Positions 401 through 59,165 of a stretch of DNA of 64,000 bases are shown piece by piece. Within the stretch, counting starts at the first letter, position 1. Each line of letters opens with the position of its first letter. Source of the stretch: Akkermansia sp. (GTDB lineage Bacteria > Verrucomicrobiota > Verrucomicrobiia > Limisphaerales > SIBH01); assembly GCA_043757045.1 (NCBI GenBank), contig JAYVQC010000097.1:365-64364 (forward strand). Direction: 5' to 3'. Made by a program: the position numbers and the translations under genes. The notes under the pieces are model-generated. The model did not search any database, was not told the DNA's origin, and was given only the letters and a program-made list of their open reading frames with translations.

Positions 401-3400
401 CTAGGGCCGCTGGGTCGGCACCGTCTTGTGCCGCTCGGGAAATTCATCGTCTGCGTGCAACGGGTTGCCCGCCGGATCAATCAGCCGGGGCGTGATGAAG
501 TAGATGAGTTCCTTCTCCGTGTAGTTCGTGGTGAGGACGCCGTTCTCGGCGCGGTCACGCTGCATGGTTCGCGCGCTGCCCGCGCCGATCATCAACGTCT
601 GCCCGTCCCAGACCATCGCCGAGGTCGCGACCTGGCGCAGACGGAATTTCGGCAATGGTACGGGCGAGGTCACGCCATTCACCTGCGCGGCTCCGCCGAT
701 GGCGGGCTGCACGGTCTGAGGATCTTCGTAGCCCAGAAATTCTTTCAGAGAAGGAAGGACTGTCATCAGAATCGTGTAGCCGTCGGGCTGCACGTAAGGC
801 ACCACGTCAAGCACGGGTCCCAGTTCAAACGGTTCGGCAATGGGCAGGATTTCCGGCTGCCGCTTGGTGGCATTGGTCGCGCCGATGTCCAGCCCCGTGA
901 CGACGTATTGGATATCCACCACTTTGATCTGCGCCTGCCGTCCGCTCAGGGTCGTGATCGTCGGCGCGTCCAGCAACTCCGTCCCGCCCCGATGCTCCAG
1001 CGCGCGCACCACGTCGCGAAACTGCCAGTCGGTGAGAATGCCGGTGATGGTCGGAACCCGTGCGTTTGAATCCGCCCGGCTCCGTGGCGGCGGATTGGTC
1101 AACACCGTGCCAAGAAACCAGTCGAAGCCCTGCGCGGCATTCGTCTTGGCGATCTCGAACACTTTCACGCGGATGTTCAACTGCGGCGGAGTCATGTTCA
1201 GCAACTGCACCGCCTTCTCGATGGTATCCAGTTCCGATGCGGTGGCGCGCACCATGATCATGCTCACGCGATCCTTGTAGAACACGGCCCGCCCCGGCGC
1301 GCTCAAATCCACGCCGGCCAGCTCGAATAATTTCTGCACGCGCTGCATGACGGAATTGGTGTCGTAGGGATTAAAGACCGGCTTCTTCTCACCGGTCCGT
1401 TGGTTCAATCCTGAGATAGATTTTAATCCTTCCTCCAACGTGTTCGGGTCCACCTTGAAAAACCGCGTCTGGAGATTGGTGGAGCTCGTCTCCTGAACTT
1501 GATTCGTCCACGAGTCCATCGGCTCCATCTTCAACTTCAACTCCTTCAACCTTGCTCGGACCGCCAGTTCCCGCGCGTTCACCAAGTCCAGATAGTAGAG
1601 CGCGCCCTGATTCTTCGGACTGAGCAGCAGCGCGGCTTGCAGATTCGTGCGCGCGGCTTGCAACTGGCCGGTCTCGTAGAAAACCTTTCCCGTCTGAACC
1701 AACCCAGCCGCTTCGATCTGCATTTCTTCAGTGATATTGCCCAGCCCGCCCGCCACCGCTCCGCCCGCCCGGACTTCGGCGCCTGACTTAATGCCGAACG
1801 GTTGCAGCGCCTTCTCAATCACGTCCAAGTCTTCCAGTGTCGCGCGGATCATCAGCAGCCCGAGCTTGTCATTGTAGAAGACCGCCTTGCCTGGTTCGGT
1901 CAATTCCACTCCCAAGGACTTCAACCAGTTTCGCGTTCCGGGAGTCACCACTTCAGCCGGTGTGACTTCGGTCAGAAAACGAATGCCGTTGGTGACCTTG
2001 AAGTCAGCAGGCCGTCCAACGCCAACATCATCAGGCGTCTTCGCAGAAGCGTTGGTCAGTTCGCGTGGTATGGATTGGAGCGCGCGCTGAAAGTCGTTTG
2101 AGTTCATGCGAAAGAATCGCGTGTGCAGCGGTGTCGGTTCATTACCCGCAGGAGAGATGAGGACGCCGTAGTCTTCGACCGAATACTTGATTCGCCTTTC
2201 CGCGATTTTCATCACGATGTTCAGCACTTCCTCGGCGCTCAGGTTGTAGAGCTTCGTGCCCAGACGAACCGTGGTGGGGTTCAAATCGATCGGCTCATTT
2301 GTTGGCGCGATGGGCAGGCCGGAGGCACCAAGTCCGGTGGGCTGCGAAGCGGGGATCGGACTGCTGAGGATGAAATTCACGCCTTGGTGTTCAGGATCGA
2401 TCCGGCGGGTCTCTGCGGACAAACCACGGATCACTTCACTAAGCGGCAGGTTGTCGAGCGGTCCCCACTCGCTCAGGCGAATGCTGCGGAGCTTGTCGTA
2501 AATCTGCTGGCGCTTCGCGCTCGTCTGCAAGCGTGTTCCCGCGCGGCTTGGCTCCTGGTTGCTGAAGAACCTTCCGAAGAGAGGAATGTCGCTGAGGTTG
2601 GAAGCAGTCAGCGAGTTTGTCGTGGTGGCAGTGGGCGCAACCCGTTTCACCTCGGCAGATTCAGCAGCCGCCGCGAACGCGCTGCCGAGAATGGAACTGC
2701 GCCAGGCACCGCCGCGCGGCTCATCAGACTTCAGCACCGCCGCCATGCCCAGCCACAGCAGCGCGGCGCCAACCATCGGCACGATAAGCCGCAGATACCA
2801 AGGCACCGGACGGCTGAGGCGTGCGTGCGGTCCGAGTTGCAGCAAGCGCTCCACGCGCTGGCCCAGCGCGCTGCGGAAACCGCCGCCATCCATGCCGAGC
2901 CAGGTGGTGAGCGCGGGGCGGCGCAGTTCCTTCGCGCAGGCCACGAGACATTCCGCGAGGCGATCCGGTCCGTCCGCGAGGAGCAGGCTGGCTTCGTCCG
3001 CGACGAGTTCGCTGGCGTGATCCAGTTCGCGCTTGGCCAGCCACACGAGGGGATGCCACCACAGCACGGCGCAGGCAAATTGACTGAAGCAGCGCCACGC
3101 CGAATCAAACCCCGCGACGTGCGCCAACTCATGCGCCAACGCCGCGTCTTGTTGCGCGGGCGTGAAGGTTTCGGAGAAACGTGTGGGCAGCACAATCACC
3201 GGACGCCACACGCCGAACGTGAACGGCGCGAGTGCCCGCGCGTTGGTGAGCAGCGCGACCTTGCGGCGAATGCCGAGCGTCTGCGCGATGCGTTGGGCGC
3301 GTTGTGTCAAAGCATTGGAGCTGCGGACAGCCATGTCCGCAGTCCCTTCTATGGTGTTGGCGTCCAGCGGACATGGCTGTCCGCTGCTCCGATGGGAGGC

Positions 3401-3865
3401 GAGCCTCAGCGCGATGGCCATCGCTTGCGCGATTAGCAGGCGAAACAAAATCAGTGCGGCGACCCCGGCCCAAATCAACACCGGCCAGACGGCGTGTTGT
3501 TGCCAGCGTGAAGGACGCGGCGCGGGCCTTGGCACTGTCATGGTCAGCGGCGGGGCTTCGGTCATCAGTTGGTCGCGAAACCATTCCGAGTCCGGCTCCA
3601 CATCCTGCAAGGTCACGACCACCTTCTTCTCGACGAGCGGCGAAGATTTTTTCTCCGGCAGCCGCAGCCATCCGCGCACGCCGTTCAACTCCCCCACAAC
3701 AACCAGCAGCATCGCGAGCAGGGACATTTGCCAGAGCGCGCGTCGCCACACCGCCGAACGCAGTCGCAGGCTCACCAGTTTCGCGACAGCGAAGATGACT
3801 ACGAGTTCCAACGCCAGCGTGCCGCCGAACTGGAACCATTCCCGCAGAGTCGACCACGCGTTCAT
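401..3865 (-). CDS. BlaR1-type M56 peptidase signal transducer fused to a C-terminal secretin (GspD/PilQ-like) domain
   Basis: 1154-aa ORF with N-terminal TM helices and the zinc motif ALAHELAHVAGFD (HExxH) of the M56/BlaR1 family, followed by a later TM (LIVPMVGAALLWLGMAAVL). Then come two secretin-N-like modules (AVFYNDKLGLLMIRATLEDLDVIEKAL; AVFYKDRVSMIMVRATASELDTIEKAV). The secretin core follows (ITTLSGRQAQIKVVD...LDVVPYVQPDGYTILMTV...ELIYFITPRLIDP). It overlaps the upstream blaI-like gene by 4 nt. Confidence 0.85.
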   Translation of the reverse strand: MNAWSTLREWFQFGGTLALELVVIFAVAKLVSLRLRSAVWRRALWQMSLLAMLLVVVGELNGVRGWLRLPEKKSSPLVEKKVVVTLQDVEPDSEWFRDQLMTEAPPLTMTVPRPAPRPSRWQQHAVWPVLIWAGVAALILFRLLIAQAMAIALRLASHRSSGQPCPLDANTIEGTADMAVRSSNALTQRAQRIAQTLGIRRKVALLTNARALAPFTFGVWRPVIVLPTRFSETFTPAQQDAALAHELAHVAGFDSAWRCFSQFACAVLWWHPLVWLAKRELDHASELVADEASLLLADGPDRLAECLVACAKELRRPALTTWLGMDGGGFRSALGQRVERLLQLGPHARLSRPVPWYLRLIVPMVGAALLWLGMAAVLKSDEPRGGAWRSSILGSAFAAAAESAEVKRVAPTATTTNSLTASNLSDIPLFGRFFSNQEPSRAGTRLQTSAKRQQIYDKLRSIRLSEWGPLDNLPLSEVIRGLSAETRRIDPEHQGVNFILSSPIPASQPTGLGASGLPIAPTNEPIDLNPTTVRLGTKLYNLSAEEVLNIVMKIAERRIKYSVEDYGVLISPAGNEPTPLHTRFFRMNSNDFQRALQSIPRELTNASAKTPDDVGVGRPADFKVTNGIRFLTEVTPAEVVTPGTRNWLKSLGVELTEPGKAVFYNDKLGLLMIRATLEDLDVIEKALQPFGIKSGAEVRAGGAVAGGLGNITEEMQIEAAGLVQTGKVFYETGQLQAARTNLQAALLLSPKNQGALYYLDLVNARELAVRARLKELKLKMEPMDSWTNQVQETSSTNLQTRFFKVDPNTLEEGLKSISGLNQRTGEKKPVFNPYDTNSVMQRVQKLFELAGVDLSAPGRAVFYKDRVSMIMVRATASELDTIEKAVQLLNMTPPQLNIRVKVFEIAKTNAAQGFDWFLGTVLTNPPPRSRADSNARVPTITGILTDWQFRDVVRALEHRGGTELLDAPTITTLSGRQAQIKVVDIQYVVTGLDIGATNATKRQPEILPIAEPFELGPVLDVVPYVQPDGYTILMTVLPSLKEFLGYEDPQTVQPAIGGAAQVNGVTSPVPLPKFRLRQVATSAMVWDGQTLMIGAGSARTMQRDRAENGVLTTNYTEKELIYFITPRLIDPAGNPLHADDEFPERHKTVPTQRP
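3321..3388. repeat. Double-hairpin element (GCGGAC-N6-GTCCGC x2), copy inside the BlaR1-like ORF
   Basis: gcggacagccatgtccgc (3323-3340) and its reverse complement gcggacatggctgtccgc (3368-3385). Same organisation as 52018-52085. Confidence 0.8.
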
Positions 3866-4248
3866 TTGGATTTTTTCCTCTCGGCGATGAGCTTCTCGAT
3901 CTTCGCCAGTTCGGCGCGGCTCACTTCGCGCGTGTCGAGCAGGTGCGAGACGAGGTCGGCCAAGCTGCCCTCGAAGAAGCGGTTAATGAGGTGCTCGGAG
4001 TTGCTGCTGGTCACGGTGTGGGCATCAATGGCCGCGCGGTAGATGAAGGCGCGCCCGTCCACGCGATGCGCCACGAGTCCGCGCGCTTCCATCTTGCGCA
4101 GCATGGTGGCGATGGTGGTGTAGGCGAGGGCGCGTTCCTTGCTGATGTCGGTGAACACGTCGCTCACGCCGCATTCGCCGCGCTGCCAGAGCACTTGCAT
4201 GATCTGGAGCTGGAGATCGCCGAGTCGGTGGGTCTTTTGTTTGGGCAT
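3862..4248 (-). CDS. BlaI/MecI/CopY family transcriptional repressor
   Basis: 128 aa with a winged-helix N-terminus (LGDLQLQIMQVLWQRGECGVSDVF...YTTIATMLRKMEARGLV) and a C-terminal dimerisation helix. Translationally coupled to the BlaR1-like gene. Confidence 0.9.
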   Translation of the reverse strand: MPKQKTHRLGDLQLQIMQVLWQRGECGVSDVFTDISKERALAYTTIATMLRKMEARGLVAHRVDGRAFIYRAAIDAHTVTSSNSEHLINRFFEGSLADLVSHLLDTREVSRAELAKIEKLIAERKKSK

Positions 4249-6869: not shown

Positions 6870-7041
6870 CCCGATTCTGGATGAGATTCGCCGCTTCCGC
6901 GACGAGCACGCGAAGAAGTTCAACTACGACCTCGACGCGATCTTTGCCGATCATCAGCGCCACGCCGCTGAACTGAAGAAGCAGGGCTGGAAGTTCGTGA
7001 AGCTGCCGCGCCGTCGCCGTCCCACGGCCAAGGCCGCCTGA
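6859..7041 (+). CDS. Small partner protein of the PIN-like gene (putative antitoxin)
   Basis: 60 aa ([34 protein letters not shown]...). It overlaps the PIN gene end by 11 nt. Gene order is toxin first. Confidence 0.5.
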   Translation: MKTDPILDEIRRFRDEHAKKFNYDLDAIFADHQRHAAELKKQGWKFVKLPRRRRPTAKAA

Positions 7042-7045
7042 AACC

Positions 7046-8395
7046 ATGAGCACCATCACCATCGCCCCCGCGCCGACGCCGACCGCGCCTCCGATGCAGA
7101 AGGAGACGACCGCCGGCAGCTACTTCATCTCGAACTATCCGCCGTTCTCGTTCTGGAAGCCGGAGATAATCCCGCAGTTTCGCGAGGCGTTGGAGCGCGC
7201 GCCGCGGCCGGGCAGCGACCTCGGCCTCTACACGCACATTCCGTTCTGCCGGAAGCGTTGCCACTTCTGCTACTTCAAGGTCTATACGGACAAGGACGCG
7301 GCGGCGATTCGCGGCTACCTCGACGCGGTGTTGAAGGAGCTTACGACCTACGCCAGCAAGCCGGTCATCGGTGGACGCAAGTTGCGCTTCCTTTACTTCG
7401 GCGGCGGCACACCGAGCTATCTCTCGCCCGACCAGTTGAAGTTCCTCACCGATCGGATGAAGCAACTGCTCCCGTGGGACGCGGCGGAGGAAATCACCTT
7501 TGAGGCCGAGCCGGGCACGCTCACCGATCACAAGCTGAGGGCGATTCGCGAGATGGGCGTGACGCGCCTGAGCCTCGGCATCGAGCACTTCGACGATCAC
7601 ATTCTGGAAATCAACGGCCGTGCGCATCGCTCGAAGGAAGTCATGCGCGCCTACAATTACGCGCGCGAGATTGGTTTCCCGCAGGTCAACATTGATCTCA
7701 TCGCGGGCATGGTCGAGGAGACGGAGGACAAGTGGAAGGAAACCGTCGCCAAGGCGCTCGCGCTCCAGCCCGACTCGGTGACGATTTACCAGATGGAAGT
7801 GCCTTACAACACCGGCATCTATCAGCAGATGAAGGCGCAGGGCAAACTCGTCGCGCCCGTGGCCGATTGGGACACGAAGCGCCGCTGGGTTCAGTACGCT
7901 TACGGCGAGTTCGAGAAGATCGGCTACACCGTGACCAGCGCCACGACGGTCGTGAAAGACCCGGCCAAGGTGAAATTCGTCTATCGCGAAGGACTGTTCT
8001 CCAGCGCGGATATTCTTTCCGTCGGCGTCGCGAGCTTCGGGCGGCTCGGTGGTGTGCATTACCAGAACCAGCACGAGTTCGATCCGTATCTCGCCGCCGT
8101 GAACCAAGGTGAGTTGCCCGTCCATCGTGCCTACGTGCCGACGGACGACGAGCATCTCCTCCGCGAGTTCATCCTGCACTTCAAGCTCGGCCAGAACAGC
8201 GTGAGCCATTTCCAGAAAAAGTTCGGCGTGAACGTCCTGGAGCGTTTCGCCGCCCCGCTGCAACGCCTCAAGGACTGGGGCTTCCTGACCATCGAAGGCG
8301 ACACGCTGCGTCTGAACCGCGAAGCGCTGCTCGAAGTGGACCGGCTGCTGCACGAGTTTTTCCTGCCGCAACACCTTACGAACCGGACGACGTAG
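7046..8395 (+). CDS. Radical SAM protein, coproporphyrinogen III oxidase (HemN-like) family
   Basis: CxxxCxxC cluster motif HIPFCRKRCHFCYF, followed by YFGGGTPSYL and HemN-type C-terminal domain features. 449 aa. Confidence 0.85.
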   Translation: MSTITIAPAPTPTAPPMQKETTAGSYFISNYPPFSFWKPEIIPQFREALERAPRPGSDLGLYTHIPFCRKRCHFCYFKVYTDKDAAAIRGYLDAVLKELTTYASKPVIGGRKLRFLYFGGGTPSYLSPDQLKFLTDRMKQLLPWDAAEEITFEAEPGTLTDHKLRAIREMGVTRLSLGIEHFDDHILEINGRAHRSKEVMRAYNYAREIGFPQVNIDLIAGMVEETEDKWKETVAKALALQPDSVTIYQMEVPYNTGIYQQMKAQGKLVAPVADWDTKRRWVQYAYGEFEKIGYTVTSATTVVKDPAKVKFVYREGLFSSADILSVGVASFGRLGGVHYQNQHEFDPYLAAVNQGELPVHRAYVPTDDEHLLREFILHFKLGQNSVSHFQKKFGVNVLERFAAPLQRLKDWGFLTIEGDTLRLNREALLEVDRLLHEFFLPQHLTNRTT

Positions 8396-8396
8396 A

Positions 8397-8900
8397 ATGC
8401 CTGAATCACCGACAACCAGGAAAAGAAAGTTTCCAATGGTCACGGGCGCTGGTGCTGTAGCTTTCGTCTTGTTGCTGATTCCAGGCAACTACATCGCGGC
8501 ACCCGCATGGGATGTTTTGCTTCTTGAGGCCAAGGATCGCCCCGCACCCAATGTCCAAGTGGAGCAGATATGGAGCTACTATTTTGGTGCATTCTCGGAG
8601 GAGCACAATGAGTTGATCAAAAGTGATGAGAATGGGGTTGTGCATCTTCCAAAGCGCATTGTTCGAGTCCCGCGGCTGTTTGCATGGGCTGGTAGTGCCA
8701 TTGGGATATTGAATGTTCACGCGAGTCGTGGCCCGAGTTCTACCGTTTATGTTTCGGAAGATGGCTACGGCAGGAATTCGATACCAGTTGGGCAGGTAAC
8801 TCCCGCGAGCAATGGAGTTCGACGCTCGATCATTGTCATCGGGAAAAGAAGCGGCCTGCAAAAACAAACTTCCGTTGCCTCAGCAACCAATTCGCCATGA
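8397..8900 (+). CDS. Hypothetical membrane-anchored protein (visibly AT-richer ORF)
   Basis: 167-aa ORF with one N-terminal TM (VTGAGAVAFVLLLIPG) and no recognisable motif. Tightly packed between neighbours (2-nt gap upstream, 4-nt overlap downstream). Confidence 0.45.
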   Translation: MPESPTTRKRKFPMVTGAGAVAFVLLLIPGNYIAAPAWDVLLLEAKDRPAPNVQVEQIWSYYFGAFSEEHNELIKSDENGVVHLPKRIVRVPRLFAWAGSAIGILNVHASRGPSSTVYVSEDGYGRNSIPVGQVTPASNGVRRSIIVIGKRSGLQKQTSVASATNSP

Positions 8901-10111
8901 AACCCAAGCGTGCAACCAAGCTGCCTCCGTCCGCCTACGGCTCGCTGCTGGCGGACTTGAAGCGGCGTGTGCGCTCGGCGCAGGTGCGGGCCGCGCTCTC
9001 GGTCAATCGCGAGCTGGTGCTGCTCTACTGGCACATCGGGCGCGAGATTCTGCGCAGCCAGCAGGCCGAGGGCTGGGGCGCGAAAGTCATCGAGCGGCTG
9101 GCGAGAGATTTGCGGCGCGAGTTCCCGGACATGGGCGGGCTGTCGCCGCGCAACTTGAAATACATGCGCGCGTTTGCCGAAGCGCATTCCAGCGGGGCGT
9201 TCGTCCAGCAGCTTGCCGGAGAATTTGTGCAGCAGCTTGTGGCACAATTGCCGAGGCCAAAGACGGGCAAACCAATTGTGCAGCAGGCTGCTGCACAATT
9301 GCCTGCGGCAAAAGTCCAACAGCCTGTTGGACAACTGGCGCTCACAAAAGTGCAGCAGCCTGCTGCACAATTGGAGTTCGACCTCCCGCCCGAACCGTTT
9401 GCCTCGCTGCCGTGGTTTCACAACTGCCTGCTGCTCGACCGCGTGAAGAATCCTGCTGACCGCCTCTGGTATGCGCGCCAGACTTTGCTGCACGGCTGGT
9501 CGCGCGCGGTGCTCGCCGTCCAGATCGACACCAAACTTCACAAGCGCGCCGGCAAGGCCCTGAACAATTTCGCCGCCACGCTGCCGCCCGCGCAGTCCGA
9601 CCTCGCGCAGCAGTTGCTCAAGGATCCTTACACGTTCAACTTTCTCTCGCTCGGACCGGATGCGCAGGAGCGCGATTTAGAAAACGCGCTGATTGATCAC
9701 ATCCAGAAATTCCTGCTCGAACTCGGCGTGGGCTTCGCCTTCGTCGGGCGGCAGGTGCGGCTGGAAGTGGACGGCACGGAGTATCCGATCGATTTGTTGT
9801 TCTACCATCTGCGGCTCCGCTGCTACTTCGTCATTGATCTCAAGATGGAGGCGTTCGAGCCGCGCGACGCGGGGCAGATGAATTTTTATCTCGCCGCCGT
9901 GGACGATCAGATGCACCACGCGGGCGACCAGCCGGCCATCGGGCTGCTGCTGTGCCGCGACCACAAACGGCTCACGGTGGAATACGCGCTGCGGAATTGC
10001 ACCACGCCCATCGGGGTGGCCAAGTGGCGGACCAAGCTGGTGAATTCCTTGCCGAAAAAACTGCGCGGCCTGCTGCCGTCCGTGGAGGAACTCGAACGCA
10101 AGCTGCGCTGA
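8897..10111 (+). CDS. YhcG/DUF1016 family PDDEXK nuclease
   Basis: N-terminal RELVLLYWHIGREIL...WGAKVIERLARDL...GLSPRNLKYMRAFA. The C-terminal PD-(D/E)xK core is IDLLFYHLRLRCYFVIDLKMEAFEPRDAGQMNFYL. It carries the family-typical VQQ..AAQL low-complexity insert. Confidence 0.85.
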   Translation: MKPKRATKLPPSAYGSLLADLKRRVRSAQVRAALSVNRELVLLYWHIGREILRSQQAEGWGAKVIERLARDLRREFPDMGGLSPRNLKYMRAFAEAHSSGAFVQQLAGEFVQQLVAQLPRPKTGKPIVQQAAAQLPAAKVQQPVGQLALTKVQQPAAQLEFDLPPEPFASLPWFHNCLLLDRVKNPADRLWYARQTLLHGWSRAVLAVQIDTKLHKRAGKALNNFAATLPPAQSDLAQQLLKDPYTFNFLSLGPDAQERDLENALIDHIQKFLLELGVGFAFVGRQVRLEVDGTEYPIDLLFYHLRLRCYFVIDLKMEAFEPRDAGQMNFYLAAVDDQMHHAGDQPAIGLLLCRDHKRLTVEYALRNCTTPIGVAKWRTKLVNSLPKKLRGLLPSVEELERKLR

Positions 10112-10705: not shown

Positions 10706-10814
10706 AGGAGCCACGGATGAAAAACGAATTGAACACGGAAGTAGATCGGGCGAACGCAAGTCCCGCCCGTGTTTCATCCGTGTTCAATCCGCGGCTCGCA
10801 ACCGGAGATGCATT

Positions 10815-13416: not shown

Positions 13417-13460
13417 CGCTTCGGAACTTGGTCTGGGGCGTGCCCGGAGAAGGCTGTGCA

Positions 13461-13553: not shown

Positions 13554-13600
13554 GGCGTGTTCCTCCCGGCAAGTCATGGCGCACCGGCGAGATGCGCTCC

Positions 13601-41275: not shown

Positions 41276-41307
41276 ACCCAGGACAATGCCAACGAACTCG
41301 GCCCCAC

Positions 41308-48399: not shown

Positions 48400-48410
48400 G
48401 GCAAATCGGG

Positions 48411-48510
48411 CGCGCGGACTTCAGGCCGCTTCAGTGTTGTTTCTTCGGGCGTCTGGAAAATTTACCGGCCTTCTCGCGAGCTTCCTGTTGAAGCGGCGTG
48501 AACGCCGCGC
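48411..48510. repeat. About 100-bp intergenic element with terminal inverted repeats (family shared with 54251-54349)
   Basis: cgcgcggacttcaggccgcttcag ... tgttgaagcggcgtgaacgccgcgc. The same termini occur at 54251-54349. Confidence 0.75.
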
Positions 48511-48514
48511 TCCA

Positions 48515-49803: not shown

Positions 49804-51156
49804 TCAACTTTCCCAATCCGTCCATGTCACCAGGTCGCCAAGCGCGGGGCGACCGTCGTGCCGCCAGGTGAGCGGCGGTTGTTGCATTGCGCCGAGCGGG
49901 CACAAGCGCGTGACGCCCCGGCGGGCGAATTGCGTGGCCAGTTCACGCGCCCGGTCGCCGGTCGCGGCGAGGCCGACGGTGGAAACTTTTCCGCGCACGC
50001 TCTCGGCTTGGCGCATGGCTTCGGCGGCGTCAGAGACGGGCTTCACGTAGATGAAGCGGTTCAGGCACGAGAGTTGAAATTGCGGATCAGCTTCATACAC
50101 CACGGTCCATGCGGTGGAGCCTTCGCTGCGCCAGAGCTTGGTGTCGTTCGTGGCGGCGGCGCGCATTTCGTAGAAACTTCGGCGCGACGCGATGACGGCG
50201 GCGGCTTCCGTGGCGAGCGGACCGCGCGGCTCGATGGCTTCCTGCTTCGCCAGTTCCTCGGCGATCAATTCGGCAAATTTCTCCGCGCCCACCGCGCCGC
50301 CGTGCTCGACGTAGAACAAATGCGGCGAAAGACAGCCGAGTTGATTCCACGCCCCCAGGTCCGCCACGGCGCGCAACACCGTCTTCGGCAACTCGAAGCG
50401 CGTGAGCGCATCACCGGTCACGTAACCGAAACTCACGCGATGGCCGTAGCCGAGGAAACGCACGCGCGGCGGCAGTTTCTTCTGCACGATGGCGAGCGTT
50501 TCATCCGAGCCGGTGCAGGTCACGCAATCAGCCTCGGCGAAGAGCGCCTGCTCCAGCGGGTCGGTGCCGCCGGGCCACTCGGCAATTTCCAGGCACGACG
50601 CCATCTTCGGTTCCACTTCGTAAATCGAATGCGCGAACAGTCGCGGCAGCAACGACGTGCCGCGCGCGCACTTCACCATCTGCGCCGAGCGCGTGAGGAA
50701 TCCAAGCACGATGCTGAAGATCGCCGGATTCGGGATGTTCCCCGCCGTGATGTGGACGAGCAGTTCCGGCCCGCGGGCCAGCGCCTGCGTGTCACTCGCG
50801 CGGTCGGTGCTGAAACGATCCAATCGCTCGATGTGTCCGAGGTCTTGCGCGATGAGCGCGTGGAGATTTTCCGCCGTGAAGGTTTTGAAGAACGCGTCGA
50901 GTCCGCGTGCGAGGGTCGTCGTGTTGAATCCGGTTTCGGCCCCGCCGCGTTCGAGCGCGAGCTTGCGGAAGGGATTCTCCGGTTCGAGCCAGCTTTGCGC
51001 CGTGGCCGCGAGCACGCCCACGATGCTGCTCGTCGAGCGTGTGGCGAGATATTGCTCGCGATTGCGCTTCAACGTCTGGCACGCCTCGGTCACCAGGGTG
51101 GGCGTGATGGCGTGTTCAGGCGGCAAGTCGGCGATGAAATAGTGGGGCAGGTTCAT
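49804..51156 (-). CDS. LuxC-like acyl-CoA reductase family protein
   Basis: 450 aa. ..WNQLGCLSPHLFYVE.. resembles the catalytic-Cys region of the LuxC/acyl-CoA reductase family. Paired in the cluster with a LuxE-like gene. Confidence 0.7.
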   Translation of the reverse strand: MNLPHYFIADLPPEHAITPTLVTEACQTLKRNREQYLATRSTSSIVGVLAATAQSWLEPENPFRKLALERGGAETGFNTTTLARGLDAFFKTFTAENLHALIAQDLGHIERLDRFSTDRASDTQALARGPELLVHITAGNIPNPAIFSIVLGFLTRSAQMVKCARGTSLLPRLFAHSIYEVEPKMASCLEIAEWPGGTDPLEQALFAEADCVTCTGSDETLAIVQKKLPPRVRFLGYGHRVSFGYVTGDALTRFELPKTVLRAVADLGAWNQLGCLSPHLFYVEHGGAVGAEKFAELIAEELAKQEAIEPRGPLATEAAAVIASRRSFYEMRAAATNDTKLWRSEGSTAWTVVYEADPQFQLSCLNRFIYVKPVSDAAEAMRQAESVRGKVSTVGLAATGDRARELATQFARRGVTRLCPLGAMQQPPLTWRHDGRPALGDLVTWTDWES

Positions 51157-51171
51157 GAGAAAATGATCTGT

Positions 51172-51354
51172 GATGCCTCACGCCAAGGCCGCAAAGGTCG
51201 CAAAGAAGTTGTTCGGGAAATAGCCACAGAGAACCCAGAGAACACAAAGAGTGCCTCGTTCCTTCTGGGTGTTCTTTGTGGCCATTGTTTTTTCAAGCCG
51301 TGCCGCCACTTTTTTCCCCTTTGCGTCCTTCGCGCCCTTTGCGTGAGGCATTTC
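51172..51354. repeat. Composite nested palindrome between the MFS and LuxC-like genes
   Basis: Outer pair: gatgcctcacgccaaggccgcaaaggtcgcaaag and ctttgcgtccttcgcgccctttgcgtgaggcatttc. Inner pair: gccacagagaacccagagaacacaaagag and ctgggtgttctttgtggc (the same module type as the middle module of 45654-45909). Confidence 0.8.
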
Positions 51355-51355
51355 T

Positions 51356-52654
51356 TCATCGGGCCGGTCCTTCCTTGAAAGCTTGTTCGCGATTTCCGAG
51401 CGCGTGCAGGCACGGCAACCCCAGCAGTGACAGCAACAGAAACACCGCGAGCCAGCCGTAGAGCGGATAGTACGCCGCCACCTCCGTCTTGCGCGCGCCG
51501 AAGCTTTCGACCCATTTGCCCACGATGAAGTGCGAGAGATTGCCCAGCAGCCCGCCGATGGTGATGAACAATCCGAACACGCGCCCGCGCACCGCGTTCG
51601 GCACCGCCTCCATCAACGCCGCCTCCACGATGGGATAGCTCGCGAGGAAAAAGAATCCATAGACCAGCAACGTCGGCACCACCCACGCCGCTGGCACATG
51701 CGGAAACGCCGCGACGAATCCCGCCGAGATGACGATGAGCGTCGCCGCCCAACGCAGTCGCGCGCGGTCGCTGAAGTGGCCGAAGAGCGGATTGCTGATC
51801 GCCGAGGCCACGAACAGCACGCTGATGGTCAGTCCGGTTCGCCCCACGTCGAAGCCGCGCGCCTTTTGCAGAAACAACGAGCCGACCGTGCTCATGCTGC
51901 TGCCCGTGAAATCGCGCAGGAGGAACATGAACGCCGCCGCGAGGAACATCAGCCACAGCGCGGGCGTGGGGAACATCGGTTCGGGCTTGGCAAGTCGCGC
52001 GCCGGAGTTGCGGACCGCCATGTCCGCAGTCGCTTCATTCTTGGCGAGGTTCTGCGGACATGGCTGTCCGCTGCTCTGATGCGCCGCATGCTCATCCGCC
52101 AGCCACGCGAACAGCGCGGCCATCACCAGTCCCGCCACGCCGAGTTCCGCGACCGGCCAACGCCAGTCGCCCGTCATCTGTGCGCGCCAGCCGGCGTAAA
52201 GTGGCCCCAGGCAAAATCCCACGCTCGCCCCGATGCCGAGCGTTCCGAGCGCGCGTCCCGTTGTCCCCGGATACAATTGCGCCACCAGGGCCGTGGCCGC
52301 CGGATGAAAAAAACTTCCGCCCAAGCCCGCGACGATCACACACGCCAGCGCCAGCGGATAAGTGGGCGCGAAGGCCAGTCCCATGAAGCCCAGCGAGTTG
52401 ATCAGCAGCCCGACGGTCAGAAGTTTTTTCCGGCTGCACCGATCCGCGAGCACGCCCATCGCGTAGCTCGGCAGGAAATACGCGACCAACAACACGGTCA
52501 CGAGCAACGTCGCGTCCTCCACCGAATCGCGCCGATAGAACGCCTGCATCGGCAGGTAGAGCGGGATGAGCGCGATCTGGTAGATGTGCGTGAACGCGTG
52601 CAAGACCGTGGTCAATGTCAGCGTGCGGGAGCGGTGGGAAGGTGATGCGGTCAT
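51356..52654 (-). CDS. MFS transporter
   Basis: 432 aa with 12 predicted TM segments and the MFS loop motif GVLADRCSRKKLL. The central loop carries a repeat-derived insert. Confidence 0.85.
   Translation of the reverse strand: MTASPSHRSRTLTLTTVLHAFTHIYQIALIPLYLPMQAFYRRDSVEDATLLVTVLLVAYFLPSYAMGVLADRCSRKKLLTVGLLINSLGFMGLAFAPTYPLALACVIVAGLGGSFFHPAATALVAQLYPGTTGRALGTLGIGASVGFCLGPLYAGWRAQMTGDWRWPVAELGVAGLVMAALFAWLADEHAAHQSSGQPCPQNLAKNEATADMAVRNSGARLAKPEPMFPTPALWLMFLAAAFMFLLRDFTGSSMSTVGSLFLQKARGFDVGRTGLTISVLFVASAISNPLFGHFSDRARLRWAATLIVISAGFVAAFPHVPAAWVVPTLLVYGFFFLASYPIVEAALMEAVPNAVRGRVFGLFITIGGLLGNLSHFIVGKWVESFGARKTEVAAYYPLYGWLAVFLLLSLLGLPCLHALGNREQAFKEGPAR
52018..52085. repeat. Double-hairpin element (GCGGAC-N6-GTCCGC x2), copy inside the MFS ORF
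   Basis: gcggaccgccatgtccgc (52020-52037) and gcggacatggctgtccgc (52065-52082), in the same orientation as the copy at 3321-3388. Confidence 0.8.
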
Positions 52655-52688
52655 GTTTCGTTGCCCACTGGTTTTGCCGGGCGCTCTG

Positions 52689-52792
52689 GAAAAGCGGCGC
52701 TAAAGCGACCGCACTCCAAACGCTGGCGCGCAGCATCAGACGCCTCTTCACGCGCGAAGCGTTTGGAGTGCGGTCGCTTTAGCGCCGCTTTC
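52689..52792. repeat. Long perfect hairpin element (33-bp arms)
   Basis: aaagcggcgctaaagcgaccgcactccaaacgc (52691-52723) has its exact reverse complement ending at 52791. A half-site, ggtcgctttagcgccgcttt, also occurs at 33367-33386. Confidence 0.85.
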
Positions 52793-52823
52793 GGACCCGA
52801 GTGGAAGATCGAGAATGTTTGCC

Positions 52824-54167
52824 TCATCGCAACGCCCCGGGGTCGAGGCTCATCAACGAACAACCGCGCGGTTCAGCTTGCGTCGCGCGGCCGAGCAGCT
52901 CGAAGCCATCGCCTCGTTTCACGGTGAGGTCTTCCGTTTGAATCGCCAGCACGCTGCGGACATTCGCCAGATCGAAAAGGCGAAGCAACCCGGTTTCGCC
53001 CTCGGCGACCTCTAGGCCTGTTTCCGGTGAGATGACTCGCGCGCGACACCAAGGCGGGAAGTGGAAGGCGCGGGGACAGGGAGACAAGGTGACTTGGGGA
53101 CTGACGCTGGCCTGACCTTGGGCCTTGGACCTTGGACCTTGGACTTCCCCCGCCACTCTGTCGTACGCCTGCGAACTGAGTTCGCTCATGCCGTATTCGG
53201 TCACGATGTTTTCCGGCGCGATGCCGAGGTGCTTGGTGATGAGCGCGTGGAGTTCGGCCTTCGGCACTTCGCGCGACTGGCCTTTGTAGCCGCCGGTTTC
53301 CAAGACGCGTGAGCCGCGTGCGAGTTTGTAGCGCATGTTGTTTACGGCGAAGTGATCGAGCAGGTGAACGAAGTTGAACGCGGTGCCGAGCAGCATCAGC
53401 GGACGATTCGCGCACATGGATTTGCGGATGGCGAAGAGCGCGGAGTTGAGGTCGAGCGTCCATGCGCCGCCGGCACTCGCAGTAGTGGGACTGGCGCCCT
53501 CGCCAGTCGCCAGTCCGGCCAGCGCCCCCGCGGGCCGAACACCAAGCGGTGGCGCTTGGTGGACTATGACAGGCGGGGGCGCCTGTCCCACTACCACTAG
53601 CCCGGCGAACAGGGAATCACGCGCGCCGAATTCGCGGCGCACGGTGTCGAACATGTGGACGAGCGAGGAGTTCGGCGCGGCGGCGGGCGGAGGTGTGAGT
53701 GCGAGCATCGGCAGCTTGTCGAGCGGGCCGAGGAGTTGCTCGTCCATGAGATCGTTCAAGTCGGCAAGCAGATGACGCTCAAACCACGGGAGCAAGGAAG
53801 CCTCGTAAATCGCCAGCGACTCCGCCGAATGAAAATGCCGGCTGCGTCGCTGCTCGGTGGTGCCGCTGGAGAAGAAGCACGCCGTGCGCTCGTCCGGCGC
53901 GAGGCTGGTGAGTTCGAGTTCCTTGAATGCGCTCGTCGGCACGGCGGGGATTTCCTCCCAGCGCGAAATGTCCGCCGCGCTTTTCACGCCGCGAAATTCA
54001 CAGAGCCGTCGGTAAGGCGTGTTGTGCGTGAACTGAAGTTGGAAGAGTGCGAGGGCCAGTTCGTTGAAGGCGGCATCTGGCTGCGGGCAACCAGACGCAC
54101 TGAACGCACGCAGGCGCGCGGCGTAATCAGCGAAAGTCAGTTCGTTTGTCATGCGGTTTTGTTTCAA
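52824..54167 (-). CDS. LuxE-like acyl-protein synthetase (adenylate-forming) family protein
   Basis: FFSSGTT(E)QRRSRHFH and ETGGYKGQSRE motifs resemble LuxE (SSGTTG / TGGxK). 447 aa including two repeat-derived inserts. Confidence 0.7.
   Translation of the reverse strand: MKQNRMTNELTFADYAARLRAFSASGCPQPDAAFNELALALFQLQFTHNTPYRRLCEFRGVKSAADISRWEEIPAVPTSAFKELELTSLAPDERTACFFSSGTTEQRRSRHFHSAESLAIYEASLLPWFERHLLADLNDLMDEQLLGPLDKLPMLALTPPPAAAPNSSLVHMFDTVRREFGARDSLFAGLVVVGQAPPPVIVHQAPPLGVRPAGALAGLATGEGASPTTASAGGAWTLDLNSALFAIRKSMCANRPLMLLGTAFNFVHLLDHFAVNNMRYKLARGSRVLETGGYKGQSREVPKAELHALITKHLGIAPENIVTEYGMSELSSQAYDRVAGEVQGPRSKAQGQASVSPQVTLSPCPRAFHFPPWCRARVISPETGLEVAEGETGLLRLFDLANVRSVLAIQTEDLTVKRGDGFELLGRATQAEPRGCSLMSLDPGALR
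53112..53146. repeat. GGACCTT heptamer repeat inside the LuxE-like gene
   Basis: ctgaccttgggccttggaccttggaccttggacttc. It encodes ..VQGPRSKAQGQ.. Confidence 0.8.
53481..53594. repeat. About 114-bp structured element, copy inside the LuxE-like ORF
   Basis: agtagtgggactggcgccctcgccagtcgccagtcc...gcctgtcccactac. Same family and orientation as 15071-15183. Confidence 0.75.
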
Positions 54168-54250
54168 GCTCCGGCTGGTTTTCCGCGACAGCCGGACGCG
54201 CGGACTGTGCGGGATGGGGCACGGATTGGCAACCGGTGGATTGTCTTGGA

Positions 54251-54349
54251 GCGCGGCCTTCAGGCCGCTTCAGCGCGCGAGGGGCGGCGGTCTTGAAAAA
54301 CCCTCACGCCTCGAAACCTGTGAATGTTGAAGCGGCGTGAACGCCGCGG
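54251..54349. repeat. About 100-bp intergenic element with terminal inverted repeats (family shared with 48411-48510)
   Basis: gcgcggccttcaggccgcttcag ... tgttgaagcggcgtgaacgccgcgg. Confidence 0.75.
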
Positions 54350-54412
54350 TCCGGTGAGCTCCGTGGAACTGCCCGTTGCCAATCTTCGTCCCGCTCTCTA
54401 CGCTCGCGCCGC

Positions 54413-55510: not shown

Positions 55511-57325
55511 ATGGGCCGGACGGAAATGAGTTCGACGACTGCTGTTCCTTATGTGCCAACGACCGCGCCTTTCACCGCCCAGCAACGGGCGTGGTTGAAC
55601 GGCTATTTTGCGGGCCTGACTTCCTTCGCCGATACGGCCACCGCTTCGACCGGCCCGGCTCCGGCGGTGGTCGCGAAGAAGCCAGTGTTAATTCTCTACG
55701 GCAGCCAGACCGGCTCGGCGGAAGGGCTGGCAAAAAAACTGGCGAAGGATTCCGCGCCGCACGGTCTCGAAGCGAAAATCTTGGAAGCCAACGCCTGCGG
55801 CCTCGACGTGCTCGCGAATGCGGAGCGCCTGCTGTTCGTGACCAGCACCTGGGGCGAGGGCGACGCGCCGGACAATGCGACCAATCTTCTCGCCGCCCTC
55901 AGCGCGGCAGACGCGCCCAAGCTAGAGAAGCTTTCCTTCTCCGTCCTCGCGCTGGGCGACAAGAACTACTCGGACTTTTGCGGCGCGGGGAAAAAGTTCG
56001 ACGCCGCGTTCGAGAAGCTCGGCGCGAAGCGGATTCATCCGCGTGTGGATTGCGATTTGGATTACGAAGCGGCGGCGAAGGAGTGGAGCGCGGCGGTGCT
56101 GGCGAAGCTTGCGGAAGTTATCAGTGACACAGTCATCAGTAATCAGTCACTCCCGGACGGGGCGGCGACTGCACTGATTACTGACTCACTGATTACTAAA
56201 CTCCGGTCCCGCACCAACCCCTTCCCCGCGCGCCTGCTCGTGAACCGCTCGCTGACCGCCGAAGGCTCGGGCAAGGAAGTGCGTCACTTCGCGATCTCGC
56301 TCGCGGACTCAGGCTTGAGCTACGACGCGGGCGATGCGCTCGGCGTCATTCCCACGAACTGCCCCGCGCTGGTCAGCGACGTTCTCGCCGCGCTCGGGTG
56401 CGATGGCGAAGAAGCGGTGAAGTCGCCGGATGGTTCTGAAACCTCCTTCCGCAATGCGCTGCTGCAGCACTACGGCGTCACGCAGCCGACGAGCGGATTG
56501 CTCGAAGCCATTGCTGAACGCGCCCAGAGCGCGGACCTGAAAAATTTCCTCGCGCCCGCGAATAAGGCTGCTCTTGAGAAGCACCTTCATGGGCGCGAGG
56601 TGATGGATTTCCTCCTCGCGCATCCGATGGCGCGCTTCACGCCGCCGGAGTTTGTCGCGCTGCTCCGCAAGCTCACGCCGCGCCTTTACTCCATCGCGTC
56701 GAGTCCCAAGGCGCATCCTGGCGAGGTCCATCTCTGCGTCGGCATCGTGCGCTACGAAGCGCACGGGCGCAGGCGCAAAGGCGTGTGCTCAACCTTCCTC
56801 GCGGATCGCGTCGAGGGCGAAGTGACGGTGCCGGTCTTCACGCAAGTCGCGCATGGATTCCGGCTGCCCGCGAATGGCGACGTGCCGGTGATCATGGTCG
56901 GTCCCGGCACCGGCATCGCGCCCTTCCGCGCGTTCCTCGAAGAGCGTCAGGCCACCTCGGCGCGCGGACGCAACTGGCTGTTCTTCGGCGACCAGAAGCG
57001 CAGCACCGATTTTCTCTACCGCGACGAATTGGAAACGATGTTCAAAGGCGGCGTGCTGACCAAGCTCGACCTCGCCTTCTCGCGCGATCAGGCGGAAAAG
57101 ATTTACGTGCAGCACCGCATGACCGAGCACGCGAAAGAACTGTGGTCATGGCTGGAGGACGGCGCGCACTTCTACGTCTGCGGCGATGCGAAGCGCATGG
57201 CGAAGGATGTGGATCTCTCGCTGCATGAGCTGATTCAAACCGCTGGCGGCAAAACCAAAGAGCAGGCCGTTGAATACGTCGCCGCGCTCAAGTCCGCGAA
57301 ACGCTACCAACGCGATGTCTATTGA
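55511..57325 (+). CDS. Sulfite reductase flavoprotein (CysJ-like: flavodoxin + FAD/NADPH domains)
   Basis: Flavodoxin motif ILYGSQTGSAEGLAKKLA. FAD-binding RLYSIASSP, NADPH-binding GPGTGIAPFRAF and YVCGDAKRMAKDV. C-terminal ..YQRDVY. Confidence 0.9.
   Translation: MGRTEMSSTTAVPYVPTTAPFTAQQRAWLNGYFAGLTSFADTATASTGPAPAVVAKKPVLILYGSQTGSAEGLAKKLAKDSAPHGLEAKILEANACGLDVLANAERLLFVTSTWGEGDAPDNATNLLAALSAADAPKLEKLSFSVLALGDKNYSDFCGAGKKFDAAFEKLGAKRIHPRVDCDLDYEAAAKEWSAAVLAKLAEVISDTVISNQSLPDGAATALITDSLITKLRSRTNPFPARLLVNRSLTAEGSGKEVRHFAISLADSGLSYDAGDALGVIPTNCPALVSDVLAALGCDGEEAVKSPDGSETSFRNALLQHYGVTQPTSGLLEAIAERAQSADLKNFLAPANKAALEKHLHGREVMDFLLAHPMARFTPPEFVALLRKLTPRLYSIASSPKAHPGEVHLCVGIVRYEAHGRRRKGVCSTFLADRVEGEVTVPVFTQVAHGFRLPANGDVPVIMVGPGTGIAPFRAFLEERQATSARGRNWLFFGDQKRSTDFLYRDELETMFKGGVLTKLDLAFSRDQAEKIYVQHRMTEHAKELWSWLEDGAHFYVCGDAKRMAKDVDLSLHELIQTAGGKTKEQAVEYVAALKSAKRYQRDVY
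56117..56199. repeat. ATCAGT-rich palindromic element, copy inside the CysJ-like ORF
   Basis: gttatcagtgacacagtcatcagtaatcagtcac ... gcactgattactgactcactgattactaa. Confidence 0.75.
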
Positions 57326-59165
57326 AACGCCGTCCCTCTTCGCGACGCTCGCGAAACAAACGATGAGTCCTCCCGCACCACTCGATTCCATCCAGGGAGA
57401 AAAGCTCACGCACGAGCAGAGCGCGTATCTCGACGGCTTTTTCTCCGGCCTGCGCGAGCGCGGACTGACCTTCGGGAACATCGCGCCGAACCCCGTCACG
57501 CAAGCGGCCGCGACGGCCGATTTAATTTTCGAGGAGCGCGTGAAACACGAGTTGCATCCGCTCGACTCCTATCCGCTGCTGCTCGAACACGCAGTCGCGA
57601 ACAAAGCGCCGGACAAGGAGAACATCTACCGCTTCAAGTGGCACGGGCTGTTCTACCTCACGCCGCACAAGGAAGCGTTCATGTGCCGGCTGAAAATTCC
57701 CGGCGGTGTGCTTAAGACGTTTCAACTCCGCGAAGTCGCGAAGGTGTCGCAGGACTTGACCAGCGGCTACGTCCAGATCACCACGCGGGCGAATCTCCAG
57801 TTGCGCCTCATCGAGCCGAGGAACGCGCCGGAATTTCTGCGCCGCATCCAGTCCGTGGGCCTGAGCAGCAAGGGCGCGGGCGCGGACAACATCCGCAACA
57901 TCACCGCGAATCCCACCGCGGGCATCGATCCTTACGAACTGATCGACACGCTGCCGATGTGCCTAGAACTGGCGCAACTGATCAACCACGACCGCGCGCT
58001 GCACGACCTGCCGCGCAAGTTCAACATCGCGCTGGACGGCGGCGGACTCATCGGCACGGTCGAGGACACGAACGACATAGGCTTGAAGGCGGTGAAGATC
58101 GACGCGCCGATCAAGAACGGTGACACGGAAATTCCCGCCGGAGTTTATTTCCGCATGAAGGCGGGTGGCGCGACCGGGCATCAGACTTTCGCCAGCGACA
58201 TGGGCGTGCTGGTGAAGCCGGAGCAGGCGGTGAAAGTGATTCTCGCCGCGACCCGCGTTTACGTCGCAAACGGAAATCGCGGCGACCGCAAGAAGGCGCG
58301 GCTCAAGCACCTGCTCGACCATTGGTCGCTGGAGCAATACCTCGCGGAGATTGAGAAGATGCTTGGCTACAAACTGCTGCGCGCGCCCGCCACAGGGCCG
58401 AACGGAGTGATGGAGTCTGGGAGTGCTGGAGTGCTGAACTCCATCCCTCCATCCCTCCATCCCTCCATCCCTCCCGCCCCGCCCCACTCCCACGTCGGCG
58501 TGTTCGCACAGAAGCAGCGCGGGCTGAACTACCTCGGCGTCATGATTCCCGTCGGGCAGTTCACGCCCAAGCAAATGATTCGCCTCGCTGAGATCGCCGA
58601 CCTTTACGGCTCCGGCGAAGTGCGGCTCACCGTCTGGCAGAATCTCATTATCCCGAACATTCCCGATGCTTATGTCGAGACGGTGAAAAAGGCCGTGAAG
58701 AAGGCGGGCTTCGACTGGAAGCAATCACACCTGCGCAGCGGACTGATCGCCTGCACGGGAAATTCCTACTGCAAGTTCGCCGCTTCCAACACCAAGGCGC
58801 ACGCGCTCGAACTGGCTGATTATCTGGAGAAGAAACTGGAACTCGATCAGCCGCTCAACATCCACCTGACCGGCTGCCCGAATTCCTGCGCGCAGCATTA
58901 CATGGGCGACATCGGGTTGCTCGGCACGAAGGTGAAAGTCTCCGGCGAAACGCTGGAGGGCTATCACGTCACGGTCGGCGGCGGCTTCGGCGATAATCAG
59001 GCGGTGGGCCGGCAGGTCTTCAGCGGCGTGTCCTTCGAGCAGTTGAAGCCGACGCTGGAAAAAATGCTGACGACCTATCTCAAGCGTCGGAGCGCGGGCG
59101 AAACTTTCCAGCAGTTCACCACGCGCCACGATCTGAACGCTTTGCAAATGATCTTCAGCGAGTAG
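57315..59165 (+). CDS. NirA/CysI-type sulfite/nitrite reductase hemoprotein
   Basis: Start trimmed to ATG 57315 (overlaps the CysJ-like stop). Two SiR/NiR repeats. The siroheme/4Fe-4S cysteine cluster is CTGNSYCKFA...TGCPNSCAQH. Confidence 0.9.
   Translation: MSIETPSLFATLAKQTMSPPAPLDSIQGEKLTHEQSAYLDGFFSGLRERGLTFGNIAPNPVTQAAATADLIFEERVKHELHPLDSYPLLLEHAVANKAPDKENIYRFKWHGLFYLTPHKEAFMCRLKIPGGVLKTFQLREVAKVSQDLTSGYVQITTRANLQLRLIEPRNAPEFLRRIQSVGLSSKGAGADNIRNITANPTAGIDPYELIDTLPMCLELAQLINHDRALHDLPRKFNIALDGGGLIGTVEDTNDIGLKAVKIDAPIKNGDTEIPAGVYFRMKAGGATGHQTFASDMGVLVKPEQAVKVILAATRVYVANGNRGDRKKARLKHLLDHWSLEQYLAEIEKMLGYKLLRAPATGPNGVMESGSAGVLNSIPPSLHPSIPPAPPHSHVGVFAQKQRGLNYLGVMIPVGQFTPKQMIRLAEIADLYGSGEVRLTVWQNLIIPNIPDAYVETVKKAVKKAGFDWKQSHLRSGLIACTGNSYCKFAASNTKAHALELADYLEKKLELDQPLNIHLTGCPNSCAQHYMGDIGLLGTKVKVSGETLEGYHVTVGGGFGDNQAVGRQVFSGVSFEQLKPTLEKMLTTYLKRRSAGETFQQFTTRHDLNALQMIFSE
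58438..58473. repeat. Octanucleotide tandem repeat (CTCCATCC x about 4.5) inside the NirA-like gene
   Basis: ctccatcc ctccatcc ctccatcc ctccatcc ctcc. It encodes ..NSIPPSLHPSIPP.. Confidence 0.9.

Follow-up and report, generated by a model that had tools for sequence, protein, structure and literature searches.

We examined a 64,000-nucleotide (nt) stretch of contig JAYVQC010000097.1 (assembly GCA_043757045.1; hereafter the window, G+C about 62%), in which short palindromic and tandem repeats lie in frame inside conserved protein genes. An earlier note, made from the sequence alone, had listed nine such stretches; all nine are present, and the peptides quoted for them are read in the frame of long open reading frames (ORFs); the observation is confirmed and extended here to about 12 in-frame elements. 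They had been treated as one kind of repeat and are instead a mixture of two classes: class A consists of doublets of repetitive extragenic palindromic (REP) sequences and resembles REPINs (REP doublets forming hairpins), and class B consists of 7-9-nt units repeated in tandem, as hairpins or as plain arrays. Domain positions and orthologue alignments bear out that the repeats occupy loops or linkers of conserved proteins with the frame kept, and which repeat family such a loop holds differs between lineages. It seems to us likely that these REPIN-like and tandem-hairpin repeats are selfish and that selection has filtered them into permissive loops. By hand-merged counts covering both classes, the window holds about 19 intergenic and about 12 intragenic elements.

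Class A elements are compound palindromes in which two inverted stem-loops with an outward-facing tag (GGAGC or GTAG) flank a variable spacer. Those in the window are as follows.

3313-3394, minus strand: REP doublet in the BlaR1/M56-secretin gene, in frame, encoding SSGQPCPLDANTIEGTADMAVRS
42031-42128, minus strand: GGAGCGCGG...CCGCGCTCC REP doublet in the TPR-CHAT gene, in frame, not on the earlier list
52004-52091, minus strand: REP doublet of the 3313-3394 family in the MFS central loop, in frame
53481-53594, minus strand: GTAG-tagged REP dimer GTAGTGGGAC...GTCCCACTAC in the LuxE-like gene, in frame, adding about 39 residues
15072-15181: intergenic copy of the GTAG-tagged LuxE dimer family
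25666-25774: intergenic GGAGCGCGGAC REP doublet
31864-31974: intergenic doublet of GGAGCGCGGAC architecture
40158-40264: intergenic doublet of GGAGCGCGGAC architecture
48409-48513: intergenic doublet of GGAGCGCGGAC architecture
54248-54352: intergenic doublet of GGAGCGCGGAC architecture

In the BlaR1 element the arms GGAGC(T)GCGGAC-AGCCAT-GTCCGC are inverted around a 26-nt spacer; the MFS element carries the same arm and is 82% identical to it over 78 nt. The 18-nt arm has five matches in the window against 0.14 expected. The 9-mer GGAGCGCGG, counted bare, occurs 12 times against 3.1 expected, with eight of the 12 at palindrome ends; a hairpin pattern of fixed spacing was uninformative because stem and loop lengths vary. 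The pair of inverted REPs with a spacer was seen at 3313-3394, 25666-25774, 40158-40264, 42031-42128, 48409-48513, 52004-52091 and 54248-54352, and the five intergenic doublets read GGAGCGCGG-stem-loop ... stem-loop-CCGCGCTCC, the architecture of the BlaR1 and MFS elements. The spacers vary from copy to copy, and between orthologues they change more quickly than the arms. Positions 53484-53555 in the LuxE-like gene are 81% identical to intergenic positions 15072-15143, and both of these dimers end in GTAG/CTAC, one end being degenerate to GCAG.

Class B hairpins consist of an array followed by its complement, as in HemW, CysJ and NirA, while the class B segments of MutL, TPR-CHAT and LuxE are plain arrays. 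The tandem palindromes of YhcG/DUF1016 are listed alongside them.

12585-12637, minus strand: hairpin of (GAATGAC)n and its complement in HemW, in frame, encoding RMTNVEPIVIPHSPFVIP
22521-22547, plus strand: (CACGCCC)x3.9 array in the MutL linker, in frame, not on the earlier list
22742-22784, plus strand: (CCCCAAT)3(CCTCAAT)3 heptamers in the MutL interdomain linker, encoding FPNPQSPILNPQSS
42191-42217, minus strand: (GGACCTT)x3.7 array in TPR-CHAT, encoding GPKSKVQGPKS
53112-53146, minus strand: (GACCTTG)x4.4 array in the LuxE-like gene, encoding EVQGPRSKAQGQ
56116-56197, plus strand: hairpin of (CAGTNAT)n and its complement in the CysJ-like FMN/FAD linker, encoding VISDTVISNQS...ALITDSLIT
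58404-58474, plus strand: imperfect hairpin of (GGAGTGMTG)n and (CTCCATCC)x4.5 between the NirA/SiR-like halves
9225-9374, plus strand: tandem palindromes of the CAATTGTGCAGCAG-GCTGCTGCACAATTG type in the YhcG/DUF1016 gene, in frame, not on the earlier list
18790-18884: intergenic hairpin, (AGTAATC)n family, as in CysJ
45654-45909: intergenic triple-nested hairpin of three different 9-10-nt tandem families

The heptamer and octamer arrays have 4-6 matches in the window, against 0.1-0.5 in shuffled sequence, and class B has intergenic relatives at 18790-18884 (the CysJ family), 21261, 49290 and 51173. The CysJ linker hairpin has a predicted RNA fold of -43.7 kcal/mol. The triple-nested hairpin has a DNA fold of -91.8 kcal/mol (z = -14.7) and is either a composite element or the product of successive insertions into hairpin loops. 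In YhcG/DUF1016 the palindromes encode four tandem VQQxxAQL segments (xVQQxxAQLx); the 137 positions of the DUF1016_N profile are there spread over 197 residues, making the N-terminal domain about 60 residues longer, and this repeat may have its origin in the gene itself and not in a dispersed family.

The sites in the earlier note are real, with some ranges to be redrawn: the BlaR1 element spans 3313-3394, the MFS range had been shifted by about 14 nt, and at NirA only the right arm of the 58404-58474 hairpin had been given. The note had also held that these families occur as intergenic palindromes. Within the window this is so for the CysJ family (18790-18884), the LuxE GTAG dimer (15072-15181) and the GGAGC architecture (25666, 31864, 40158, 48409 and 54248), and not for the MutL, NirA, GGACCTT and GAATGAC arrays.

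The host genes were identified by Pfam domain matches; a rough gene map of the window was based on G+C content at third codon positions (GC3).

401-3865: Peptidase_M56 (BlaR1) and secretin fusion gene
8897-10111: YhcG/DUF1016 PDDEXK nuclease gene
12160-13524: radical SAM/HemW gene
21427-23385: MutL gene
41308-45021: TPR-CHAT gene
51356-52654: MFS transporter gene
52824-54167: LuxE-like acyl-protein synthetase gene
55511-57325: CysJ-like reductase gene (flavodoxin/FAD/NAD)
57270-59165: NirA/SiR-like hemoprotein gene (NIR_SIR)

Pfam agrees with the protein names previously given to all eight hosts then listed (all but YhcG/DUF1016), and domain coverage is complete in each. GC3 is of coding type, 0.74-0.82, in the seven of these that pass the GC3 filter; TPR-CHAT failed it, and its status as a gene rests on Pfam. 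The host ORFs are not pseudogenes, since they are full length, completely covered by their domains and coding-type in GC3 (for TPR-CHAT, by Pfam alone). That they might be decaying was an alternative raised in the earlier note; we consider it extremely improbable, together with the related idea that the insertions arose as artefacts when a metagenome bin was assembled, as the same insertions are found in orthologues from independent JGI, ENA, NCBI and Logan assemblies. We found no point in favour of either in the sequence data.

Some observations on these genes and their neighbors stand apart from the repeats. The M56/BlaR1 sensor-protease and a C-terminal secretin form an unusual fusion in one protein of 1154 residues, adjoined by a BlaI-type repressor gene at 3862-4248 (region 401-4248). 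Genes for a LuxC-like reductase, the MFS transporter and the LuxE-like synthetase lie side by side at 49804-54167; in a relative (locus L006) LuxE and MFS are separated by a YkuD gene, in place of which the window shows only a palindrome with perfect 34-nt arms (52691-52791). The last 96 or so codons of the TPR-CHAT gene are duplicated in a 296-nt direct repeat (40260-40555 and 41301-41596, 90% identical) whose copies bracket a small PIN-domain module at 40614-41275. It looks as if a toxin-antitoxin cassette entered the CHAT gene at its 3' end and brought or left a replacement for that end.

Alignment of the hosts with orthologues, as the earlier note had proposed, revealed discrete insertions at six elements: BlaR1, HemW, MFS, LuxE 53481-53594, NirA and TPR-CHAT 42031-42128. 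The 23-residue BlaR1 block is present in the window, in L123 and in P0361-P0364 (these four at 73-78% identity). Of 18 more distant representatives aligned, 17 (P0365-P0369 and P0371-P0382) lack it and one, P0370, retains only a remnant. The MFS central loop is about 15 residues long in most of 120 orthologues, and the block GQPCP...ADMAVR is common to the window and P0123/L006, P0123 being 84% identical. The HemW loop is empty in P0306, P0316 and P0337, and also in L205, where the DNA reads GCGCGC-GCAGGACGT-GCCTGC. The LuxE dimer, with its GTAG...CTAC ends, is missing from L006 and L007 (gene-wide DNA identity 86.8%), the NirA hairpin of about 54 nt from four orthologues (L001-L004), and some 21 residues of TPR-CHAT 42031-42128 from the L006 homologue. 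The NirA interdomain connection has 36 residues in the window versus 16 in the solved nitrite reductase 3b0h. Two of these comparison loci, L002 and L004, are CysJ-NirA orthologue loci from metagenome-assembled genomes (MAGs) of Pedosphaera sp.; the MFS gene that adjoins NirA in L004 was set aside as not orthologous to that of the window.

The earlier note had reasoned that segments shared with orthologues would be ancestral protein sequence. Sharing does occur, for BlaR1 at 73-78% identity, for MFS at 84%, for CysJ down to about 60%, for LuxE 53112 at about 88%, and for MutL, as related arrays, at 65-79%. At BlaR1 and MFS more distant orthologues lack the segment, and sharing among relatives there therefore indicates an old insertion, not the lack of one.

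The same loops are used by different repeats. Among the 120 MFS orthologues, at least eight other repeat-type peptides occupy the loop, including SCPQP...RTGKSA, RRSPT...SETGAP, NRNLN...KIKIT, GEGRGEG..., GRAALS...RAEDS, DQSLLASAAT and HVGGYG, and P0158 carries a LuxE-type VGQAP...GACPT element there. The MFS insertion points differ by a few residues, which is more in keeping with a permissive loop than with one nucleotide target. The hairpin found in the HemW loop of the window (MTN.../...FVIRHS) is present in 25 orthologues, while 18 have SKVQSPKSKV.../...WTLDLGPWT of the GGACCTT family and five have MECRSDG.../...HSITP. Replacement can occur over very short distances: HemW of the window and of P0242 are separated by a Kimura distance of 0.024 outside the loop, with flanking DNA 92-96% identical, and hold unrelated hairpins of 60 and 102 nt between identical junctions. 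The CysJ linker comes in four kinds (VIS.../...LITDSLIT, ECGDSSPLS.../...GDKSPHS, VVSGQ.../...PLTTD and decayed forms) that are interleaved on a tree built without the linker; the second of these is a strong compound palindrome, folding at -66.8 kcal/mol in L001. The L002 NirA orthologue has, at 8010-8078, a (GAAATCC)n heptamer array (EEKSKIQNLKSEI) in the loop that holds the NirA hairpin in the window. The turnover may have come about by deletion and re-insertion, by insertion into resident hairpins, or by allele exchange between strains.

Where hairpins are shared, differences between orthologous elements fall mainly in the spacers, and loops contain indels. With two to three DNA orthologues available per hairpin, the MFS doublet is identical at 70 of 73 positions versus 82.9% for the gene-wide DNA (P = 8e-4), the CysJ hairpin arms at 55 of 62 versus 75% (P = 0.006), and the LuxE array at 34 of 35 versus 86.8% (P = 0.045). 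The BlaR1 doublet matches L123 at 70 of 74 positions, a comparison that is biased, L123 having been found through an exact match to the arm. This conservation may stem from selection on the hairpin, from homogenisation with other copies or from transposase constraint.

The REP family reaches well beyond the window. Scanning species-representative genomes, we found the 18-nt arm in at least 116 DNA stretches, mostly from Verrucomicrobiota MAGs labelled Pedosphaera sp., Limisphaerales or Verrucomicrobiia. The arm is free of stop codons in all six frames, and some copies among the matches listed lie in long ORFs with coding-type GC3. One locus, L037 from a Limisphaerales MAG, has an ORF at 6898-7755 that matches NCBIfam REP_Tyr_transpos (99.4 bits, cut-off 80) and Pfam Y1_Tnp. 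This transposase gene is flanked on both sides by GGAGCGCGGAC-N6-GTCCGC REP doublets, with one arm identical to that of the window, and its annotated N-terminus runs into one of them; this is the classic arrangement of a REP-associated tyrosine transposase (RAYT) with its own REPs. The RAYT query was an approximate E. coli sequence; Pfam and NCBIfam confirmed the L037 match, and not those at L112 and L065.

We propose that a Pedosphaera/Limisphaerales-type Verrucomicrobiota genome has been heavily colonised by these two classes of small non-coding palindromic repeats. Class A would most likely be copied by a RAYT (Y1/HUH) encoded elsewhere in the genome, and class B may spread by MITE-like (miniature inverted-repeat transposable element) copying combined with slippage. 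Copies would land genome-wide, and those inside genes would survive only with a net length change that is a multiple of three, a stop-free frame, and a tolerant surface loop or interdomain linker able to accept 10-40 extra residues. Because of the high G+C content of the repeats, many of their frames are open. The outcome would be intact genes with repeat-encoded peptides, presumably of no benefit to the host. Since each protein has few permissive loops and hairpins are deletion-prone, the same loops would be hit, emptied and refilled by different families.

Several points weigh against this proposal. The 64-kb window contains no RAYT gene, and the apparent link to a RAYT comes through the relative L037, a locus retrieved for containing the REP. 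Di Nocera et al. 2013 (PMC3733652) do not include GGAGC in their list of GTAG variants. In class B no tag can be recognised, and none of the results here accounts for how these elements move. No empty-site orthologue was found for MutL, for LuxE 53112 (against L006 and L007) or for TPR-CHAT 42191 (against L006), and the CysJ linker is never empty in 120 orthologues. Finally, the arms appear more conserved than their host genes, which a purely neutral passenger model would not predict.

The shared arrays leave room for a different origin of some segments, namely that MutL, LuxE 53112, TPR-CHAT 42191 and possibly CysJ represent old low-complexity linkers in which replication slippage of short units has lengthened the sequence locally. 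Related NPQS/IRNPQS arrays are found in MutL orthologues of 65-79% identity, where they occupy the same end of a Pro/Ala/Ser-rich linker 100-150 residues long; the LuxE 53112 array is common to the two relatives compared (L006 and L007); and the units of these arrays have no second copy in the intergenic DNA of the window. At TPR-CHAT 42191 the L006 homologue has different sequence of similar length. Insertion at MutL, LuxE 53112 and TPR-CHAT 42191 is not proven by these alignments. However, the SKVQGPKS/WTLDLGPWT heptamer family recurs in HemW, MutL, TPR-CHAT and LuxE, and VISNQ/LITD occurs both in CysJ and in intergenic DNA; recurrence of heptamer families in unrelated proteins and lineages argues for copying rather than independent local origin, and we give slippage in place a limited chance for these segments. 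A further idea, that one unit more or less in an intragenic heptamer array shifts the frame as a contingency (phase-variation) switch, for example turning MutL off to give a mutator, takes its appeal from unit lengths that are not multiples of three and from arrays inside ORFs, including that of the mismatch-repair gene mutL. The arrays are nevertheless short (3-6 units) and imperfect, and in frame in every relative seen: the LuxE 53112 array has equal unit counts in L006 and L007, all 80 MutL loci returned match query residues 1 to 650-652, and none of 47 translated metagenomic MutL orthologues has an internal stop. With no frameshifted alleles among these 47, we rejected phase variation of mutL, and for the arrays generally regard such switching as very improbable.

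The arm conservation invites the view that the intragenic hairpins are kept for a role at the nucleic-acid level, such as translation pausing at a domain boundary, mRNA stability or processing, or RAYT binding. Arms conserved above the host coding sequence while spacers and loops drift would fit such a role, as would retention of the VIS.../...LITDSLIT hairpin in CysJ linkers down to about 60% protein identity, sites exactly at domain boundaries (CysJ FMN/FAD, the MutL linker, the NirA halves), and strong predicted folds (-43.7 to -66.8 kcal/mol) for linkers with an intact hairpin. Yet the loop is empty in many working orthologues, or is taken up there by an unrelated family, the arm comparison covers few pairs, one of them (L123) picked by exact arm match, and gene conversion of arms against other genomic copies would give the same pattern, so that maintenance for such a role seems rather unlikely to us. 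A broader suggestion, offered tentatively, is that the loops may be long-lived landing pads in Pedosphaerales-type Verrucomicrobiota, where unrelated hairpin families replace one another over very short distances and the arms are under nucleotide-level constraint above that on host codons. If so, REPIN-like replicators and an undescribed class of tandem-unit hairpins would live in coding sequence as maintained elements, and such elements would target existing hairpins or serve a role at the mRNA or DNA level.

Returning to selfish repeats filtered into permissive loops, the phenomenon is already known, including in the Verrucomicrobiota and at this G+C content, that of Opitutus terrae being about 65%. 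Di Nocera et al. 2013 (BMC Genomics 14:522, PMC3733652) distinguished two superfamilies of REPs, GTAG and CGTC; in their survey intragenic copies encode 20-30 residues and are most numerous in O. terrae (Verrucomicrobia) and Rickettsia conorii. The supplement of that paper has about 70 intragenic GTAG REP entries for O. terrae, contrary to the suggestion in the earlier note that such behavior was undescribed for this type of GC-rich genome. Like the O. terrae REPs, the elements described here are short tagged palindromes of a Verrucomicrobiota genome, single or as inverted dimers, with several families per genome, in frame in genes of known function and encoding about 7-30 residues, and the LuxE element shares the GTAG...CTAC ends. 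Unlike them, most doublets here carry the GGAGC tag, absent from the list in that paper; half of our cases are tandem-unit hairpins or arrays, which lie outside the coverage of that survey; the local density is much higher, 8-9 of about 50 genes compared with some 70 entries in the whole O. terrae genome; and reuse of the same loops by different families, seen here, has no mention in the available text.

The classic in-frame palindromes are the Rickettsia palindromic elements (Ogata et al. 2000, 2002; as summarised in PMC10969869 and PMC3733652), to which the behavior had been likened before. The likeness holds as one of behavior; given the differences in length, G+C content and host lineage, a sequence relationship to families 1-10 of these elements is not expected. 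In both, palindromic repeats are in frame and compatible with the fold in unrelated housekeeping genes, with ORFs intact and the host protein apparently functional. The Rickettsia elements are, by the same accounts, about 100-150 bp long and belong to AT-rich obligate intracellular alphaproteobacteria, whereas those here are 27-114 nt long, GC-rich and from a free-living soil lineage. REPIN-RAYT systems (Bertels and Rainey 2011, PMC3116915; PMC3337134) likewise have two inverted REPs with a spacer, many dispersed copies, and a single RAYT flanked by its own REPs (here in the relative L037); they are described as extragenic, whereas several of the elements here appear to lie in translated ORFs. 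We found nothing relevant on tandem-heptamer hairpins in coding regions, nor on REPINs in Verrucomicrobia beyond Di Nocera et al. 2013, in an incomplete library. Class B has a possible parallel elsewhere. Heptamers in tandem, for example CCCCAAT, and peptide signatures like VISNQ/LITD, resembling the arrays here, are features of the short tandemly repeated repetitive (STRR) sequences of cyanobacteria. Such STRR heptanucleotides and small dispersed repeats were reportedly described by Mazel in 1990 and Elhai in 2008. They belong to a different phylum, and the arrays here are by contrast usually paired with their complement as hairpins and lie inside ORFs.

What we present is accordingly a dense new case of a known phenomenon, standing out in local density, tandem-unit hairpins in ORFs, loop reuse and conserved arms; of these, only the loop turnover and arm conservation are possibly new, and the same incomplete library yielded no paper on tandem-unit hairpins in ORFs, loop turnover or conserved arms. 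Repeat-derived peptides can evidently be common in housekeeping proteins of an abundant soil phylum. This matters for annotation and MAG quality control, where repeats create spurious small ORFs and odd low-complexity segments; for protein evolution, where the insertions mark tolerant loops almost as an experiment would; and for REPIN-RAYT biology, so far treated as extragenic. If turnover and arm conservation hold, hairpin targeting and action on mRNA become testable in existing metagenomes.

Two further hairpins were considered as intragenic and rejected. The hairpin at 10725-10791 falls in ORF 10566-12101, whose translation probably begins at the Met that immediately precedes the FAD-binding motif, placing the hairpin upstream of the gene. 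That at 13460-13560 overlaps the over-long HemW ORF, whose real start is probably downstream of 13524 within ORF 12160-13524, leaving the hairpin outside the gene. Elsewhere in the window, positions 28506-31796 encode a protein of 1096 residues with DUF4394 and four-fold CHRD domains and internal DNA repeats of about 360 nt (62-76% identity); they reflect the usual repetition of domains and have no relation to the dispersed palindromes.

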